A DNA stretch of 64,000 nt. Origin: an uncultured Gammaproteobacteria bacterium. GTDB taxonomy: Bacteria > Patescibacteriota > Patescibacteriia > JAHIZJ01. The notes beneath the pieces were generated by a model, which saw nothing but the letters and a program-made list of their open reading frames with translations, searched no databases and had not been told where the DNA came from. Location of the stretch: positions 379,042 to 443,041 of the forward strand of contig CAYJKP010000001.1 in NCBI GenBank assembly GCA_964371245.1, read 5' to 3'. Of the stretch, positions 3,343 through 53,245 are shown one piece after another. Every line of letters begins with the position of its first letter. Position 1 is the stretch's first letter. The translations under genes and the position numbers were made by a program.

Positions 3343-3688
3343 TAATACGCCTATGTTGTTTCAAAGCGAAAAACCAAAAATGATACCGTATGGGATTTAT
3401 GCAGGTTTGCTCGAAGGCGTTTACATCGCGCTAGTGGGCTTGTTCATGATTAACGCAAATAAGTTATTTGGTTCTAACCAGGGGGATACGCCGGCGTCGT
3501 TTATTATCTTTCTCCTGTTATTTGTTTTTAGCGCCGGCTTGTCCGGCCTGATTGTTTTCAGCTATCCGGTTTTTCTCGTTACCCAAAGGAAGTTCCGGGA
3601 GGCAGTTCTGACGGTGTTGGTTACGCTCGTGACGCTCCTATTTCTATTTATCCTGTCATATCTATTGTTTGTCGTGGTGGTTTCATGA
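3317..3688 (+). CDS. hypothetical small membrane protein (3 TM)
   Basis: Hydrophobic 123-aa ORF; start is probably an internal Met (3353 or 3380). Confidence 0.4.
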   Translation: MSQPYILPNNTPMLFQSEKPKMIPYGIYAGLLEGVYIALVGLFMINANKLFGSNQGDTPASFIIFLLLFVFSAGLSGLIVFSYPVFLVTQRKFREAVLTVLVTLVTLLFLFILSYLLFVVVVS

Positions 3689-4257
3689 GACTCGGCACTA
3701 TCAGTAGCAAAAAGCGGCATTGGACGCGACAAACGAAAACTAAGGACAGGCAAGCCTCATTTGCCAGTCGAATACATCCGACAAATGTACGCAATTCGGG
3801 TCGTCGAATGGTCAATAAATTTTTTGATTCGACGTTTTTAGCGGTTCGACGCGTGGCCGTGGTAACATCGTCGTTTCAGCCGAAAAGGAAAATACATCAA
3901 AACTGCGAGCTGCTTGAACAAATAACTGAGCTGCTCGCCAGCCCGAGCGAGGTGGTGCGGCTTTCAGCTCTTCAGGCCTACCTCCAGCTGCCCCTGCCGT
4001 TGGCCGAGTATCGCACAATTGCATTCCACGGACTAACGATTGGCTTGCGGGATCAACAGCCGCGCGTCCGTCGGCAAGCCGTTGTTTTGCTGGGCCAGTT
4101 TATCGAGGTGTATGCGGATCATTGGGAACACGGCATTCCTTTGCTGAACGATTGTTGTCACGATTCGGCAACGTCAGTGGCGAAAAAGGCATATGAAATT
4201 ATACAGCAGCAACACGCCAAAAAAGCAAAAATACAGAAAACATATTTGGTGAGATAG
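3685..4257 (+). CDS. HEAT/PBS-lyase-repeat-like protein
   Basis: Repeats of the form VRLSALQAY...QQPRVRRQAVVLLGQ look like HEAT-like helical hairpins. Start is probably the Met at 3808. Confidence 0.4.
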   Translation: MRLGTISSKKRHWTRQTKTKDRQASFASRIHPTNVRNSGRRMVNKFFDSTFLAVRRVAVVTSSFQPKRKIHQNCELLEQITELLASPSEVVRLSALQAYLQLPLPLAEYRTIAFHGLTIGLRDQQPRVRRQAVVLLGQFIEVYADHWEHGIPLLNDCCHDSATSVAKKAYEIIQQQHAKKAKIQKTYLVR

Positions 4258-4261
4258 TTCA

Positions 4262-5134
4262 ATGCCGGAGTTACCCGAGGTTGAAACAGTTAAAAACGAC
4301 CTGAGACCGCTTCTGCTAAGGAAGCGGATTGTTGATATTGAGGTGCGCTTGCCAAAAATTGTGAAGGTCCCGGTCGCGCAATTCGTTCGACAGATCAAGC
4401 GTGCTCATATCCGCGACGTTCGACGACGCGCGAAAATTCTTTTAATCGATTTGGATAATGGTGCGACGATTTGTATTCATCTCAAGATGTCGGGTCAATT
4501 AATCCTCGCGTCGCGACGCGGCCTCGAGGGTGTCGGCGGACATCAGATTGTCGGTGGAACAGAACATTTACCGAATAAATACACACACGTGATATTTCGA
4601 TTGAGCGGGTCGCGCGTGCTGTATTTTAATGATTTGCGTCAATTCGGGTATCTTACTATCATGCGCACTGATGAATTAGATGCGTTTTTTTCAGAAAAAA
4701 AACTTGGACCCGAGCCATTCCAACGATCATTTAGTATTGATTATTTTACCGGCCAACTTCAACGAAAACGGAAGACGATGATAAAAACGGCGCTGCTCGA
4801 TCAGGCCATGGTTGTCGGGTTAGGCAACATTTATACCGACGAAGTTTTATTTGCCGCGCGGATCAAGCCGACTCGGCGGGTGCACAGCCTCCGTCAGGCC
4901 GAGAAACGCGCCATCTATGACCGGATTAAGTCGATCTTGCGTACCGCCATTCGTCTCCGCGGGACTACCTTTCGCCATTTCCGTGATGGGCGCGGGCAAC
5001 GTGGCAATATGCTCGAATATCTAATGGTTTACGGTCGTTCCGACCAGTTGTGTCGTCGATGCAAAAAAGGTACAATACAAAAGATCCGGCTGGGCAGCCG
5101 GTCGAGTAGCTACTGTCCCGTTTGTCAGCAGTAG
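4262..5134 (+). CDS. mutM: formamidopyrimidine-DNA glycosylase (Fpg/MutM)
   Basis: N-terminal MPELPEVE with catalytic Pro2 and Glu3, H2TH region, and a C-terminal zinc finger CRRC...CPVCQ. Confidence 0.9.
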   Translation: MPELPEVETVKNDLRPLLLRKRIVDIEVRLPKIVKVPVAQFVRQIKRAHIRDVRRRAKILLIDLDNGATICIHLKMSGQLILASRRGLEGVGGHQIVGGTEHLPNKYTHVIFRLSGSRVLYFNDLRQFGYLTIMRTDELDAFFSEKKLGPEPFQRSFSIDYFTGQLQRKRKTMIKTALLDQAMVVGLGNIYTDEVLFAARIKPTRRVHSLRQAEKRAIYDRIKSILRTAIRLRGTTFRHFRDGRGQRGNMLEYLMVYGRSDQLCRRCKKGTIQKIRLGSRSSSYCPVCQQ

Positions 5135-10910: not shown

Positions 10911-10938
10911 TTGACAGACGATATCCTTCTGGTATACT
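10911..10938 (+). promoter_or_regulatory. sigma70-like promoter of the rplJ-rplL operon (TTGACA-16-TATACT)
   Basis: Consensus -35 and good -10, about 140 nt upstream of rplJ. Confidence 0.6.
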
Positions 10939-11076
10939 GTGGATATTACCGCAGACAGAGGGCCCCAGTACCCGAACGTACGTGAGTGGTGCTGGGTTAA
11001 TACACCAGCCTTCCGAGGTATAAATACATTTGTATTTTTTGTCTGCGGCCAGCAGATTTTTTTGTTAACAACCAAT
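10939..11076 (+). promoter_or_regulatory. ribosomal protein L10 leader (autoregulatory 5' UTR with attenuator hairpins plus U-runs at ~11028-11040 and 11042-11063)
   Basis: Structured leader between promoter and rplJ ATG. TCTGCggccaGCAGA followed by TTTTTTT sits immediately before the RBS. Confidence 0.55.
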
Positions 11077-17236: not shown

Positions 17237-17338
17237 CTTATCCACATATTCACTGTCTAATGCGCAACGGAAGGAACCTCCGATCCCTCAGCCGTTGCCA
17301 GACAAGGAGTCATCACCATCAATCAAGTCAAACCGGCG

Positions 17339-43987: not shown

Positions 43988-44064
43988 TGGCGGAGCGGAC
44001 GGGACTCGAACCCGCGACCTCTGCCGTGACAGGGCAGCGTTCTAACCAACTGAACTACCGCTCC
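43988..44064 (-). tRNA. tRNA-Asp (GTC)
   Basis: Reverse complement GGAGCGGTAGTTCAGTTGGTTAGAACGCTGCCCTGTCACGGCAGAGGTCGCGGGTTCGAGTCCCGTCCGCTCCGCCA. 7-bp acceptor stem, anticodon loop CTGTCAC, T-loop GGTTCGAGTCC, encoded CCA. Confidence 0.95.
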
Positions 44065-48905: not shown

Positions 48906-49088
48906 ATGACAAGCCGAGACACGCTCCTGAGAGTTCTTGACCAGCAGGTCGAGAATCTCTACATTATCAAGCGTCCAAGGCAACATCCCTGTCCAGCCTG
49001 CGGTGCGCTGACATTCCATCTCTGGGTGTGTCGCAACTGCCTGAACCGACAGGCAGAAGAATATTTCAAAAAACGGCACGCTGCTTAG
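48906..49088 (+). CDS. small CPxC..CRNC zinc-finger protein
   Basis: GGGAGGG RBS before the Met at 48906; its stop overlaps the dinB stop region. Confidence 0.4.
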   Translation: MTSRDTLLRVLDQQVENLYIIKRPRQHPCPACGALTFHLWVCRNCLNRQAEEYFKKRHAA

Positions 49089-50377
49089 GACAAAAGCGGG
49101 TCAACCTCAAGGCGGTTGAGCTCAACTGCTTGGGCTGGTTGTGTCTTCCGGAAGCCGATCCGATCGGGCGCGTTTCGATCAGTTTCCCACATGCTACCCA
49201 AATAAATTGTAAACTCACCATAGACGTCGTTTATTTCATCTAGGGCGTTTGACAGCGCCGTATTTTTTTTCTCAGATGAAGACCAGAGCGAGAGCTGGTG
49301 TGAATGCGGTACGAGCCGAAAAGCCGTCACCGCCAGCATGCTGATGGGACGGCCGGCGAAGGAGCGACGGAAGATGGCCATCACTTGGTGAAAGATGTTG
49401 GCGGTGTCAGCGATTGGATACGGCAGAGTTTGGTGGCCGCTAAAGCCTCCACCCGTGCTGTAGCTCCAATAGACGCTGATGCCGCGGGCGACGCGTTTTT
49501 GCTGGCGCAGGCGACGGCCGACTTTTTCGCACAGCTTCATAAAAATTTTACGGTGATAGGCGGGATCGGCAGTTTTGATCGGAACACAGTATGAGTGGCC
49601 GATCGATTTTGGCTCAGTGGGCTGTTGAACGCCGCCCAGCTCGAGGCCGTGAAGGTTGGCCCAGAGATAATACCCGGGCTTGCCCAAAGATTGCAGAAGG
49701 TTGGCAACCGGATAGCGATACAGCTGGCCGGGCGTGAAGATGCCGAGGGCGTTCAGCCGCGCTTCCAAACGGTGGTTAATGCCCCAGATGTCCGTAAGCG
49801 ATATGCGTTCGTAAAAATCAAACAGATCATCCCTTGAAAGCGGCAAAACGCTCTGTGGGCCAGTGTAATCAGAAGCGAGCTTGGCCAGAAAGCGGGTGAA
49901 GGAGAGGCCGATTGATGAACGCAACCATTCGCCGACCTCGGTAGTAATTTCGTGTTGAATGCGAGACGCTAAACGGCCGGCTTCAGACAAGCCCGAAACA
50001 TGGCCGGTTAGATCGAGAAACGCCTCGTCAATGCTGTATGGCTCAACATCATTCGTATACCGTTTTAAAATAGTGAATATCTTTTCGGTCGTCGAGCGGT
50101 ACTTGGCCGGGTCATTTTGGATCAGAATAACCTTTGGGTAGAGCTGGCGAGCGTCGCGGACGCGGCAGCCGGTTTTAATGCCGACCTTTTTTGCTTCGAT
50201 CGACGAGGCAATAATACAGCCATTCTCACTCAGATAGGCGCAGACGCCGACCGGCTTGCCGCGCAAAAACGGATTTGCCTGCTGCTCAACCGAGGCGAAA
50301 TAGCTGTTCATGTCGATGTGGAGGATGATTTTTTTTGTATTTTGTTCTAACATAAGCCATTTAAATAATCTTTCCAC
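49085..50377 (-). CDS. dinB: Y-family DNA polymerase IV
   Basis: ILHIDMNSYFASVE and SIDEAFLDLTG catalytic motifs. Start is probably the Met at 50353. Confidence 0.88.
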   Translation of the reverse strand: MERLFKWLMLEQNTKKIILHIDMNSYFASVEQQANPFLRGKPVGVCAYLSENGCIIASSIEAKKVGIKTGCRVRDARQLYPKVILIQNDPAKYRSTTEKIFTILKRYTNDVEPYSIDEAFLDLTGHVSGLSEAGRLASRIQHEITTEVGEWLRSSIGLSFTRFLAKLASDYTGPQSVLPLSRDDLFDFYERISLTDIWGINHRLEARLNALGIFTPGQLYRYPVANLLQSLGKPGYYLWANLHGLELGGVQQPTEPKSIGHSYCVPIKTADPAYHRKIFMKLCEKVGRRLRQQKRVARGISVYWSYSTGGGFSGHQTLPYPIADTANIFHQVMAIFRRSFAGRPISMLAVTAFRLVPHSHQLSLWSSSEKKNTALSNALDEINDVYGEFTIYLGSMWETDRNAPDRIGFRKTQPAQAVELNRLEVDPLLS

Positions 50378-51332
50378 ACCTTATGCAGTCCTGTTTCTTG
50401 ACAGGCAAATAGGGCATGGTAGTATGAAAGTCTGCGTTTTTGACAATTCGTGTGTGAGAGAGGAGCGGGGAGAGCGCCGTGTTCTGCCCAGTCGTAAAAG
50501 CCCGGACTCCTGTCTGCGCCGGCGAATGTCGGCAGGACGGGCTCCGGTGCACTTGGCACTGGGCCACGCGCTCAAGAAGAACTTCGCTACGGTCTAGCGA
50601 GATCTTGCGTCAGGGTAAGCCTCCGGGGAAATGCGGCGTCTGTCGCGTTCCGGCCGGTCTATCCAAAGGCTGATCCGACACTTTCTGGCCAACACTAGTC
50701 GGATTGGAAGCGCTTTTCTCGGGTCGCGGGAGACGGCCGTCAGTGGTTCGTAAGCGGGGAGAACCTGCGCCACCGATTGCGTCGTCGTTCATGTCGATAC
50801 CGCGCCATCTACGCTTCCACCCTGTAGTACGTTCGCTTCTCTCTCACACTTTCGTTCTCTTCGTCTCTCCGCCACCTCCGTGGGGGAGGAAATCCTCGGC
50901 TGGACCCGGACTGCTGGTCGAGGTGGCTGCATGGCTGAGTGTTGGACGGGGCTCCACCAGGAGCTTCATACGCCGCAACGGCCTTCCGTTGGACGTTCAG
51001 CGCTTACGCGCATGGCCTACGTTCAGTCCGAAACCACCAGTGCGTCTAGCCTTTACCGGCTAGCGCGGGGCCCAATCCCATCAGGGAGCGGGCTCTTTTT
51101 CTTTGCAAAGAGCCAACAAATAATAAAGCCAACGGACATCGTAGAGCTATGTTTTTATCAAAGCCAATGATGGCGGGGTCTCGTTCTATTATCCTTTGCT
51201 GATTCTACAAGGCTTGCGCCGAAAACAAAGATTTTCGGCTACGATATTGGTTGCGTGCAGGCGGGCCGTTGTTATTTTCATGATTGTCCAACTACACGGC
51301 ATTAAACTCGTCGTTTTTATCCACACATTTTC

Positions 51333-51360
51333 TTGACACTGTGGCAGGGCGTGATATCCT
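51333..51360 (+). promoter_or_regulatory. sigma70-like promoter (TTGACA-16-TATCCT with upstream TG)
   Basis: Perfect -35 hexamer inside the GC-rich segment, facing a downstream terminator. Confidence 0.45.
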
Positions 51361-51366
51361 GAAAGC

Positions 51367-51662
51367 CTGTACCATGAAAGGATAAAACCGAGAGCGAGGA
51401 GGGAGAGCGTCGCCGAGAGAGCCGACGCCGCATTCCGGTTCTGATAGGGGACCATCGCTGATACGCGCACCTGCAGCCCGTCCGCGGCGGCGTTTTCCAG
51501 AAACTGACCGTTCCCGAGTCTTTCTGGAGACTGACCGTGTCAGAAGCCACCTGACAACCAAAGCCCTTCGGCTGGTTGTCCTTCGCCGTCCGTCTGACGC
51601 CCCCTCCTCCATTGTTTCTCTCGTTTCTATCCCTTGCCCGGCTCTTCGGAGTGCGGGTTTTT
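51367..51662 (+). ncRNA. candidate ~300-nt structured sRNA (promoter-to-terminator unit on the plus strand)
   Basis: Region bounded by the promoter and an intrinsic terminator. Contains hairpins GCGTCG..CGACGC, AGTCTttctggAGACT, CAACCAaaGCC(CTTCGG)GCTGGTTG and a direct repeat ACTGACCGT x2. Confidence 0.4.
51637..51662 (+). terminator. intrinsic terminator with UUCG tetraloop
   Basis: CCCGgCTC-TTCG-GAGtgCGGG followed by TTTTTAATTT. Confidence 0.65.
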
Positions 51663-51920
51663 AATTTGATCCATCCGTGTAGAGATCCTCTAGTTTCCAA
51701 GCAAGCGCGGAAGGGGAAAACGACAGAACGAATGTGTTTGAACTGTCTGATACGGAAAAGAAAAAAACAAGCTCGCGGCCGACCCGGTTCGTATGAACGA
51801 GGTTCAGCCTTTTCACGGTGTATCGCTTCCGTCCCCAGGTGAAGGCATGAGGCGTGATTTTCCGCCCGACAAAGGAAGCCAGAACGTGAACCGGTTCGTT
51901 TATCTTTTCATACATAAAGC

Positions 51921-51952
51921 AATTCAAAATTCAAAATGTAAAATTAAAAATT
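51921..51952 (+). repeat. AT-rich heptad-periodic repeat copy a (AATTCAAAATTCAAAATGTAAAATTAAAAATT)
   Basis: 7-nt periodic AATTnAA units; related copies at 51982, 52687 and 53136. Confidence 0.75.
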
Positions 51953-51958
51953 GAGGAA

Positions 51959-51975
51959 GCCCGCCCAGAGCGGGC
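51959..51975 (-). terminator. lexA terminator hairpin, centre of a ~95-bp AT-rich palindromic element
   Basis: GCCCGCCcagaGCGGGC; on the minus strand it is followed by TTCCTCAATTTTTAATTTT. Confidence 0.65.
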
Positions 51976-51981
51976 ACAATC

Positions 51982-52016
51982 ATTTTGCATTTTGAATTAT
52001 TAATTTTGAATTTCAT
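51982..52016 (-). repeat. AT-rich repeat copy b, inverted relative to a
   Basis: ATTTTGCATTTTGAATTATTAATTTTGAATTTC is the reverse complement of the a/c family. Confidence 0.75.
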
Positions 52017-52020
52017 CATT

Positions 52021-52677
52021 CTATTTCGCCGGCTGAAAGTTTCTGGTGTACGTCTTATAATTCTGCCAGTTGTGCTCGAACGTCCGAAAGATCGCCCGGA
52101 CAATGCCCTGGATGGCCGGGTTCTTCGCGTAAATCGGTTTCATCTTTGCGTTGGCTGGCTGGAGCCGAATGCGGTCGCGTTCGCGGTAGTAGCGTTTTAG
52201 GGTGGCATAGGTGTTGTCGAGCAGCGCCACGACGACGTCACCGTTCCGCGGGTAGAAGCTCCGCTCGACGATCACAAAGTCGCCGTCGAGAATGCCATCG
52301 TCAATCATTGATTCGCCTTTGACTTTCAGAACGTAGGAGTTTTCGTCGCGTACGATCTCGGCCGGGACGGTAATTGTTTCCCGCTCTTCGATTGCCTCGA
52401 TCGGCGCACCAGCCGTAATCAAGCCGGCCAGGGGCAACTCAATCGCTTTTTTGAAGCGGGCCACGCGGGTCGGTTCGAGCGAACGGGCCTTGCCGGCGTC
52501 GGCCTTAAGAAACCCTTTGTCCTCCAGGCCGCGGATATGCTCGGCGATGGTAGCGGGGGAGGAGAGGCCAAGGTGGTCGGCGATTTCCCGATAGCTAGGA
52601 GAAAAATCGTTGATCTTAATGAACTCGACGACGAAGTCGAGAATTTCTTTTTGTTTTTTGGTAAGGCGTTCGGTCAT
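52021..52677 (-). CDS. lexA: SOS repressor LexA
   Basis: N-terminal winged HTH (SPSYREIADHLGLSSPATIAEHI), Ala-Gly cleavage site region (LAGLITAGAPIEA), Ser (GESM) and Lys (VALLDNTYATLKRY) of the S24 peptidase dyad. Confidence 0.92.
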   Translation of the reverse strand: MTERLTKKQKEILDFVVEFIKINDFSPSYREIADHLGLSSPATIAEHIRGLEDKGFLKADAGKARSLEPTRVARFKKAIELPLAGLITAGAPIEAIEERETITVPAEIVRDENSYVLKVKGESMIDDGILDGDFVIVERSFYPRNGDVVVALLDNTYATLKRYYRERDRIRLQPANAKMKPIYAKNPAIQGIVRAIFRTFEHNWQNYKTYTRNFQPAK

Positions 52678-52686
52678 ATGGTTGGA

Positions 52687-52727
52687 AATTAAGAATTAAT
52701 AATTCAAAATTTAAAATGCAAAATTAT
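52687..52727 (+). repeat. AT-rich repeat copy c, located in the lexA promoter region
   Basis: AATTAAGAATTAATAATTCAAAATTTAAAATGCAAAATTAT. Confidence 0.75.
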
Positions 52728-52753
52728 GGAATACGGAATTAAAGGACAGTGGT

Positions 52754-53101
52754 TCACTCTTTTGATTTGAGTATGATGGTTGCGATAATTTTTGAAAGCT
52801 CATCATTTTCCATCGCTATGTTTTTTATTTGGGAATGCTTGATACCAGACAGCGATCCCAATACAGTCAACCAATATTCAGTTTCTCTGGCAGAGCGCAA
52901 GGCAATGCTCATATAGCGCCGGAACTCTTTCTTTGTTGCACCGTGTTGTGCCTCAACAATATTTGCCCCGATTGAACACCCTGAACGCATAACTTGGCTC
53001 CTGACGGCTCTTGATTCCGGTGTTAGAGTGACCGATTGAAGAAAATGGGCGAGGGTGATGCTAAATTGCAGTGCCCGCTGATGAATAGTAACAGTAGCCA
53101 T
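52754..53101 (-). CDS. four-helix-bundle protein (23S rRNA intervening-sequence protein / Avd-like, PF05635 family)
   Basis: ALQFSITLAHFLQ...SQVMRSGCSIGANIVEAQ...FRRYMSIALRSARETEYWL motifs. Start trimmed to MATVTIH. Confidence 0.75.
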   Translation of the reverse strand: MATVTIHQRALQFSITLAHFLQSVTLTPESRAVRSQVMRSGCSIGANIVEAQHGATKKEFRRYMSIALRSARETEYWLTVLGSLSGIKHSQIKNIAMENDELSKIIATIILKSKE

Positions 53102-53135
53102 AAAAATCTTTTCTGTTCCTTGCCGCCTTCCTTCC

Positions 53136-53160
53136 TTTTGAATTTTACATTTTGAATTTC
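53136..53160 (-). repeat. AT-rich repeat copy d, inverted, immediately upstream of the four-helix-bundle gene
   Basis: TTTTGAATTTTACATTTTGAATTTC; with copy c it brackets the 4HB gene. Confidence 0.75.
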
Positions 53161-53245
53161 TAGCCATTTTCATTATACCGAACAAAAACCGAACGTCAAG
53201 GGGTAGTTATCCACAAAGGTAAAAAACCGCTAATTATGGAAGTTT

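Follow-up and report, generated by a model that had tools for sequence, protein, structure and literature searches.

A candidate non-coding transcription unit facing the lexA-orf84-dinB operon of Patescibacteria

RESULTS

A predicted plus-strand unit lies opposite the damage-response operon

In the 64,000-nt stretch of DNA analyzed here (hereafter, the window), which comes from a MAG of an uncultivated patescibacterium, the segment at 51333-51662, which we call U2, is a plausible, unclassified, lineage-restricted candidate non-coding transcription unit for which we found one orthologue and one paralogue, as judged from sequence and predicted structure. It combines a sigma-70-type promoter, an intrinsic terminator, and a lack of protein-coding potential, as would be expected of a stand-alone sRNA gene. 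We tentatively favor, at somewhat less than even confidence, the reading that U2 is an independently transcribed, non-coding, highly folded cis-antisense RNA and the orf84-proximal member of a U1/U2 pair that faces a LexA-controlled operon. On the minus strand, the gene order is a LexA-box promoter (53180-53215), a 23S_rRNA_IVP gene, lexA, an AT-rich hairpin, orf84, a gene-free interval of 1.3 kb, and dinB. The gene-free interval contains two tandem plus-strand units, U1 and U2. The features of the locus are as follows:

49085..50353, minus strand: dinB, Y-family DNA polymerase (Pfam IMS, IMS_C, and IMS_HHH), divergent from U1
50398..51105, plus strand: U1, larger paralogous unit with promoter, closing helix, 3' domain, and terminator
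50398-50425, plus strand: U1 promoter, TTGACA/TG/TAGTAT
50452-50468 / 50833-50849, plus strand: U1 closing helix of 17 bp (inverted repeat), followed by the 3' domain
51067-51096, plus strand: U1 two-tier terminator, followed by UUUUUCUUU
51106..51316, no strand assigned: AT-richer spacer between U1 and U2 (GC 0.44)
51317..51325, plus strand: perfect DnaA-box-like nonamer TTATCCACA, 7 nt 5' of the U2 -35 element
51333..51360, plus strand: U2 promoter from the consensus scan (TTGACA at 51333-51338, 16-nt spacer, TG at 51352-51353, TATCCT at 51355-51360)
51380..51412, plus strand: U2 5' purine-rich, Shine-Dalgarno-like strand (outer-helix part 51380-51394; closing-helix part 51396-51412, containing CGAGGAGGGA)
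51413..51594, plus strand: U2 variable interior (multibranch domain 51424-51494; hairpins 51495-51529, 51531-51543, and 51553-51580, the last with a UUCG loop)
51595..51636, plus strand: U2 3' pyrimidine-rich strand GACGCCCCCUCCUCC (anti-Shine-Dalgarno-like), then the CU-rich tail AUUGUUUCUCUCGUUUCUAUCC
51637..51662, plus strand: U2 intrinsic terminator, CCCGGCUC-UUCG-GAGUGCGGG at 51637-51657, then UUUUU at 51658-51662
51661..51915, minus strand: orf84, conserved 84-aa DUF6504-like gene, convergent with U2 and called on every contig spanning it
52021..52677, minus strand: lexA (Pfam LexA_DNA_bind and Peptidase_S24)
52754-53185, minus strand: 23S_rRNA_IVP gene (four-helix-bundle), inserted between the operon promoter and lexA
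53180..53194, minus strand: LexA box of the clade type, GTTCGGTTTTTGTTC, in the operon promoter, 5' of the inserted 23S_rRNA_IVP gene

Transcription signals and predicted fold of U2

The initial annotation had described U2 as running from promoter to terminator, and both ends were recovered. The TTGACA and TG-extended TATCCT elements at 51333-51360 are present in the sequence and in our consensus scan, where this TG-extended promoter scored 10 of 12 matches to a sigma-70-type consensus. The transcription start, which is predicted rather than mapped, would fall at ~51366-51368, giving a predicted plus-strand RNA of about 51367-51662. Across the 2.8-kb region, six promoter-like sites were found against 1.8 expected, all of them (6/6) on the plus strand. 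The UUCG terminator at 51637-51662 is likewise borne out, folding as a 9-bp bulged GC-rich hairpin of -12.5 kcal/mol that is followed by UUUUU and was equaled in stability by 2 of 200 shuffles. It was not picked up by a simple terminator scan because the hairpin is bulged. The run of U residues coincides in part with the orf84 stop codon, which is read from the other strand. In reverse complement, the element forms only a weak fold (-7.7 kcal/mol) and lacks a U-run; termination of the minus-strand operon transcript would therefore not be expected here.

Between these ends, the RNAfold prediction has a multibranch domain and three hairpins enclosed by two helices, an outer one (51380-51394 / 51618-51632) and a closing one (51396-51412 / 51595-51609). 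The annotated minimum of four inner hairpins is predicted, and the two UUCG loops (51569-51572 and 51645-51648) and the direct repeat of ACTGACCGT (51503-51511 and 51530-51538) are present as described. U2 also holds four copies of CUGAC, which the other units lack. The surrounding segment had been called GC-rich; its GC content of 58-62% is only a modest excess over the window mean of 49%.

The full U2 unit is more stable than its dinucleotide shuffles, with a z of -4.3 in one run and -3.2 in another, and the minus strand scores an equal z. Most of this signal is due to the long-range helix, since 300-nt windows that sever it score only about -1.5. For U1, the full-unit z was -4.3 in one run and -5.6 in another. 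Across the U-type RNAs, full-unit values were about -3 to -6 (-3.2 to -5.8), and flanking coding sequence scored close to 0. Minus-strand values of the units were also negative (-2 to -5), and the plus-strand z was equal or better in 7/7 units tested on both strands. We used z and dropped raw folding energy as a criterion of strand: owing to G+T skew, the plus strand gives the better fold in flanking coding DNA as well. A long-range closing helix in which the 5' strand is rich in purines and the 3' strand in pyrimidines is predicted in six U-type RNAs, whose sequences differ and whose helices include G-U pairs on the plus strand. In an ungapped-helix test, which does not capture the bulged U2 helix, p was about 0.005-0.1 per unit. 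This test was used because RNA duplexfold pairs whole segments and is uninformative for the closing helix.

Two of the three perfect DnaA-box nonamers TTATCCACA in the window (17238-17246, 51317-51325, and 53207-53215, against 0.37 expected) directly adjoin -35 elements, those of the U2 promoter and of the lexA operon promoter. This suggests that DnaA input into the lexA-orf84-dinB locus is possible.

U2 fits no RNA family and encodes no recognizable protein

A search of 51333-51662 against Rfam 15 returned no family at E<=10, with 6S, tmRNA, RNase P, SRP, OLE, ROOL, GOLLD, HEARO, raiA, and Y RNA all included, in agreement with the annotated lack of RNase P, tmRNA, SRP, and 6S signatures. The only weak matches nearby were AT-rich hairpin noise at 51821-52013, and the homologous regions of 10 relatives gave no match at the gathering threshold. 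Elsewhere in the window, an L10_leader match was seen at 10931-11071 on the plus strand (44.8 bits against a gathering score of 44), and a tRNA lies at 43991-44064 on the minus strand.

The absence of an ORF that had been noted is true of the plus strand, on which no ORF or gene was found inside U2, but the minus strand has three ORFs that overlap it, of 93, 106, and 127 aa. These are arginine-rich and of low complexity, had no Pfam match, and were never called as genes on the listed contigs spanning the interval. By tblastx, no conserved peptide was found among the units, the shared terminator being the sole match. A pseudogene of the SnoaL-like ORF that occupies this position in some relatives was rejected, as tblastn with two such ORFs (from L011 and L022) gave no match in the window better than E=0.6. 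We also rejected a mobile or foreign origin: a sensitive blastn-mode search gave no match in plasmids and phages, and the conserved U1 terminator had no exact match in viral contigs.

The initial annotation had set U2 convergent with lexA and concluded that it is not simply a lexA leader. The opposite orientation and the lack of a downstream gene on the same strand agree with this, although the direct convergent neighbor is orf84. Because only the antisense of orf84, and no same-strand gene, follows the terminator, U2 is not a riboswitch or 5' leader.

orf84 and control of the operon

The product of orf84 is a distant DUF6504 relative; its homologue P0159 scores above the Pfam cut-off for DUF6504 (PF20114). 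It is 54-66% identical in four aligned close relatives, 57 Patescibacteria protein clusters contain homologues, and the gene lies between lexA and dinB at every examined locus having both genes. An AlphaFold2 model (pLDDT 93) predicts a 7-strand all-beta meander, which had no match in the PDB with E<0.1 and no recognizable RNA-binding fold. This confident all-beta model, with no significant PDB match, appears to rule out orf84 as an RNA-binding or toxin partner. As a soluble all-beta DUF6504-like protein, it is also unlike the small hydrophobic toxic peptides partnered by type I antitoxins such as RatA and SR4, and U2 is therefore not an antitoxin of that type.

A clade LexA box of the GTTC-N7-GTTC type, GTTCGGTTTTTGTTCGG, is present in the lexA promoter spacer of all relatives. 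LexA regulation of U1, U2, or dinB was rejected, as around the locus a box of this type was found at the operon promoter but at none of dinB, U1, and U2. Scans of the window and L011 found no operon-direction promoter between orf84 and dinB, and scans of the window, L011, L013, and L021 found no convincing operon-direction terminator after orf84. Weak dinB-direction promoter-like sites were seen in L013 and L021.

Several further observations concern the lexA side of the operon. AT-rich repeats (AATTCAAAATGTAAAATT / ATTTTGCATTTTGAATTATTAATT) flank lexA at 51914-52019 and 52690-52735, and one of them forms a hairpin of ~105 nt between lexA and orf84, a gap that measures 6-10 nt in L011/L013 and 74 nt in L015. 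The 23S_rRNA_IVP insertion between promoter and lexA is found in the window and in L022. As the same AT-rich repeats accompany the IVP gene in L022, a small mobile element is suggested.

U1 is a paralogue of U2

U1 lies 935 nt upstream of U2, in tandem and on the same plus strand, so that both are found between dinB and orf84 and antisense to the operon genes. The two align over ~100 nt spanning the promoter, leader, and purine-rich strand at roughly 70% identity, and by this alignment they are paralogous over the promoter and first ~100 nt. A 37-nt degenerate pattern built from the two promoters matches just these two sites, with 0 matches expected. The purine-rich 5' strand of U2 is paralogous to U1 50463-50479, and the 3' pyrimidine strands and tails of the two units are alike. 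Other GC-rich stretches in the window are coding, and no further copies of the units were found in it.

Related U1-type RNAs occur in other species. They have a terminator GAGCCCAA..GCGGGCUCUUUUUCUUU in common, with 17 nt unchanged among the window, L013, and L032; the U1 terminator GCGGGCTCTTTTTCTTT is identical in L013 and L032, with a related form in L011. The window and L011 also have the U1 leader GUCUGCG(C)UUUUUGACA in common. The leader sequence GTCTGCGTTTTTGACA (50429-50446) is kept in L011 and partly in L021. On the minus strand, the U1 leader reads TTGTCA, a possible -35 element of a dinB promoter. The -10 of such a promoter would fall on that of U1 (50419-50425), and the putative dinB and U1 promoters would therefore be divergent, overlapping, and mutually exclusive.

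The U2 orthologue keeps its ends and changes its interior

One relative, L031, has a U2 orthologue in the same position, adjoining orf84, with promoter core CTTGACGCTGTGG, CU-rich tail, and terminator. Its promoter core has CTTGAC(A/G)CTGTGG in common with the window U2, its 5' strand CGAGGAGGGA is identical to that of the window, and its 3' strand reads CCUCCUCC. The L031 closing helix is of 15 bp with three G-U pairs. In a second relative, L028, the same U2 3' end is found, and CCUCCUCCUUCAUGG..UCUCU..UUUCU can be aligned among the window, L031, and L028. These ends are kept in L031 and L028 at only 57% identity of orf84.

The initial annotation had proposed a search of other Patescibacteria genomes for the hairpin series with compensatory changes, and such a series was not conserved. 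Interiors are unalignable both between orthologues and between paralogues, and the interior hairpins are not conserved. In L031, the interior (~190 nt) cannot be aligned with that of U2, and the overall z is only -1.9, which is marginal against shuffles. A k-mer enrichment among the units revealed no shared internal motif beyond U-runs and GAGAG/GGGAG. Because of this divergence, covariation could be assessed for the closing helix only. There, the first 8 bp are common to the window U2 and L031, and the extension is GCGUC/GACGC in one and AUCGGCU/AGUCGGU in the other, both of which pair; in these two sequences, the change is consistent with compensatory change.

The slot between orf84 and dinB is variable in close relatives

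Contigs with identical LexA represent the same strain and therefore provide no variation. In the nearest other species, identity to the window is 81-86% for LexA and 54-72% for orf84. Wherever the contig of a relative extends to dinB (those of L028 and L030-L032 stop short of it), the order lexA-orf84-[slot]-dinB is retained. Slot length ranges from 276 to 1544 nt, and there is almost no nucleotide or translated similarity between species. In seven close relatives whose contigs reach this point (L011, L013, L015/16, L021, L022, L031, and L032), the slot contents are driven by a TTGACN/-10 promoter pointing away from dinB, with a TG-extended -10 in five; no TTGACA was found in the L017 slot. 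The contents of the slot differ as follows:

L013 and L021: U1-type RNA only (460-500 nt)
L011 and L032: U1-type RNA plus a 181-aa SnoaL-like ORF with its own promoter
L022: SnoaL-like ORF only
L015: short hairpin RNA plus a remnant of the SnoaL-like ORF (C-terminal)
L029: a different ORF
L017: 276 nt

The initial annotation had held that absence from close relatives would count against the unit. U2 is indeed missing from most of them or replaced, whereas the L031 orthologue has conserved ends. In distant Patescibacteria (L033), the operon is a compact lexA-orf84-dinB arrangement with an orf84-dinB gap of 55 nt and the same GTTC-N7-GTTC box in its promoter. The opposite-strand insert of 0.3-1.5 kb, which carries U-type RNAs and/or a small protein gene, was found only in the small clade of the window. 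As the operon is compact in distant Patescibacteria, this clade has acquired an opposite-strand insert inside its SOS operon.

Other observations were made at these loci. The protein that occupies the U2 slot in some relatives is SnoaL/NTF2-like, 181-186 aa long, with a signal peptide or lipoprotein-like N terminus and weak Pfam LEH/SnoaL_2 matches only. It is encoded at the following positions:

L011, 6967-7512, minus strand: SnoaL-like ORF
L022, about 4300-4860, minus strand: SnoaL-like ORF
L032, 507-1055, minus strand: SnoaL-like ORF

A hairpin-rich gene-free segment near orf84 in L030 (858-1436, minus strand) contains two copies of a hairpin of ~50 nt, GCC(C/G)GAAAC..ATCAGG..GGATTTC(G/C)GGCTACG. 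In L026, a purine/pyrimidine hairpin lies between lexA and orf84 (3570-4010). A DnaA-box motif is found beside the -35 element of the L013 U1 promoter, inside the spacer of the L031 U promoter, and inverted 5' of every clade lexA promoter; association of this box with promoters was seen in L011, L013, L015, L021, L031, and L033.

DISCUSSION

The reading of this segment as a candidate novel sRNA is upheld insofar as U2 runs from promoter to terminator, lacks conserved coding and an Rfam family, and has an orthologue in L031 and a paralogue in U1; it is weakened by unconserved hairpins and a narrow distribution. The unit itself had been correctly recognized, whereas the tandem U1, the intervening orf84, and the antisense place within an ancestrally compact operon had been overlooked.

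How might such a unit act? Under the cis-antisense reading, the strong U1 and U2 promoters would fire toward the operon, and the operon transcript, if it reads past orf84, would enter the antisense of U2 and then of U1. Such a crossing would be expected because no minus-strand promoter or terminator was found between orf84 and dinB and the operon promoter has the single LexA box. Transcription from opposite directions, together with RNAs that are perfectly complementary, may then limit or uncouple read-through into dinB, and the same antisense interference may determine where the lexA-orf84 mRNA ends at its 3' side. A long untranslated transcript could be kept intact by its strong folding and raised GC, which would make it resist RNases and perhaps Rho. 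Conservation of primary sequence is not required for a cis-antisense role, which thus fits a unit whose promoter, helix-forming ends, and terminator are kept while its interior is free. We favor cis-antisense action or interference because it would explain the kept position, orientation, promoter, and terminator alongside freely changing sequence, the same-orientation protein gene that fills the slot in some species, and the end of U2 exactly at the orf84 stop codon. Against it, the z of U2 is equal on both strands and that of L031 is marginal, U2 is absent from most relatives, the interior hairpins are unconserved, and covariation support comes from one helix in only a few sequences. Moreover, the weak dinB-direction sites of L013 and L021 mean that dinB may be independent of read-through.

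An antisense role also leaves the conserved GGAGG / CCUCC-like closing helix unexplained, and this keeps alive a model in which U2 acts in trans through a C-rich seed. In Firmicutes, C-rich sRNAs base-pair with the purine-rich ribosome-binding sites of their mRNA targets. In U2, the C/U-rich 3' strand and tail (CCCCCUCCUCC-AUUGUUUCUCUCGUUUCU) could do likewise, with the 5' purine strand masking the seed until processing or opening. We regard this as unlikely, although no RNA segments are better conserved among the window, L031, and L028 than the CCUCCUCC strand and the CU-rich tail, the L031 fold leaves the tail unpaired, and U1-type RNAs have a similar pyrimidine tail. In the window, the U2 tail is paired in the minimum-free-energy fold, the distribution of the units is very narrow with frequent loss, and complementarity is uninformative because any CU-rich sequence pairs with any Shine-Dalgarno site.

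It is rather improbable that the function resides instead in the minus strand, as a structured intercistronic spacer of a lexA-orf84-dinB mRNA that governs processing, stability, or attenuation of dinB, the plus-strand signals being secondary. In its favor, lexA, orf84, and dinB share the minus strand and are compactly arranged as an operon in distant relatives, the minus-strand z is also negative, and no minus-strand terminator follows orf84. However, plus-strand promoters (mostly TG-extended) and U-run terminators are kept species after species, G-U pairs of the closing helix become A-C mismatches on the minus strand, and in none of the seven units was the minus-strand z the better one. We are similarly doubtful that U2 is a non-functional relic in a cargo hot spot, a decaying gene or duplication remnant with leftover promoter and terminator. 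The highly variable slot (SnoaL-like ORF in L022, L011, and L032; remnant in L015; other ORF in L029; 276-nt gap in L017) and the unalignable interiors would suit such a relic. Yet no trace of the SnoaL-like ORF was found in the window by tblastn, there was no match in plasmid, phage, or viral collections, the U2 ends persist in L031 and L028 despite the divergence of orf84, and GC of 58-62% against a 49% background together with folding above shuffles is the opposite of neutral decay. Finally, a protein-binding or scaffold RNA, whether a partner of the DUF6504-like protein or DinB or a ribosome/30S decoy acting through the Shine-Dalgarno-like strand, is highly improbable, since the constant linkage of U2 to orf84 and dinB and its GGAGG-like conserved sequence are offset by the presence of orf84 and dinB without any U RNA in most Patescibacteria, an orf84 model without a recognizable RNA-binding fold, and the lack of a conserved internal loop or junction.

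Few descriptions of regulatory RNAs seem to exist for Patescibacteria (the Candidate Phyla Radiation), and in the literature searched we found nothing relevant to this locus on structured or noncoding RNAs of the group, on DUF6504, or on CPR noncoding RNAs at lexA. Here, non-coding units that fold strongly and lie on the opposite strand interrupt a compact lexA-DUF6504-dinB damage-response operon. Should they be true regulators, a bacterium with a reduced genome would tune its error-prone polymerase by RNA and not by an extra LexA site, and the U units would be a defined family with conserved ends and a free interior. If the units are not transcribed, the locus would simply be a variable insertion hot spot. 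A more far-reaching proposal, which we consider speculative and improbable, is that U1 and U2 belong to a new class of "clamped" antisense RNAs that evolve fast and that entered the SOS operon of this clade to gate error-prone DinB. Selection would then act only on the SD/anti-SD-like closing helix, the CU-rich tail, and the transcription signals, and DinB could be gated by overlapping promoters at U1 and by antisense interference at U2, perhaps with control from the DnaA box.

Comparison with known systems offers partial parallels to the cis-antisense reading. In B. subtilis, RatA/txpA and SR4/bsrG are convergent cis-antisense RNAs that overlap mRNA 3' ends. Like these, U2 would be a discrete promoter-to-terminator unit of 200-300 nt opposite a protein gene, with the 3' ends touching. 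Unlike them, its partner orf84 is predicted to be a soluble all-beta DUF6504-like protein and not a small hydrophobic toxin, the overlap with coding sequence is of the stop codon only, and there are two tandem units over 1.3 kb, both of them candidate RNAs. As with cis-antisense units and transcriptional interference in operons generally, U2 would be perfectly complementary to a read-through transcript, and no sequence conservation is needed. Among the C-rich or anti-Shine-Dalgarno-like sRNAs of Gram-positive bacteria, RoxS/RsaE and the S. aureus Rsa RNAs, with their UCCC motifs, resemble U2 in that its conserved C/U-rich tract just 5' of the intrinsic terminator could pair with ribosome-binding sites, but U2 has no sequence or covariance-model similarity to them (Rfam E<=10), its tract is paired to the purine strand in a long helix, and it is much larger. 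Like OLE, ROOL, GOLLD, HEARO, and raiA, large structured RNAs discovered by screening for long GC-rich intergenic regions, U2 occupies a long ORF-free intergenic region with GC above background and a strong predicted fold in a small-genome organism; in contrast to U2, which lacks an Rfam match, those RNAs have conserved cores with covariation, whereas the U units are conserved at their ends only.
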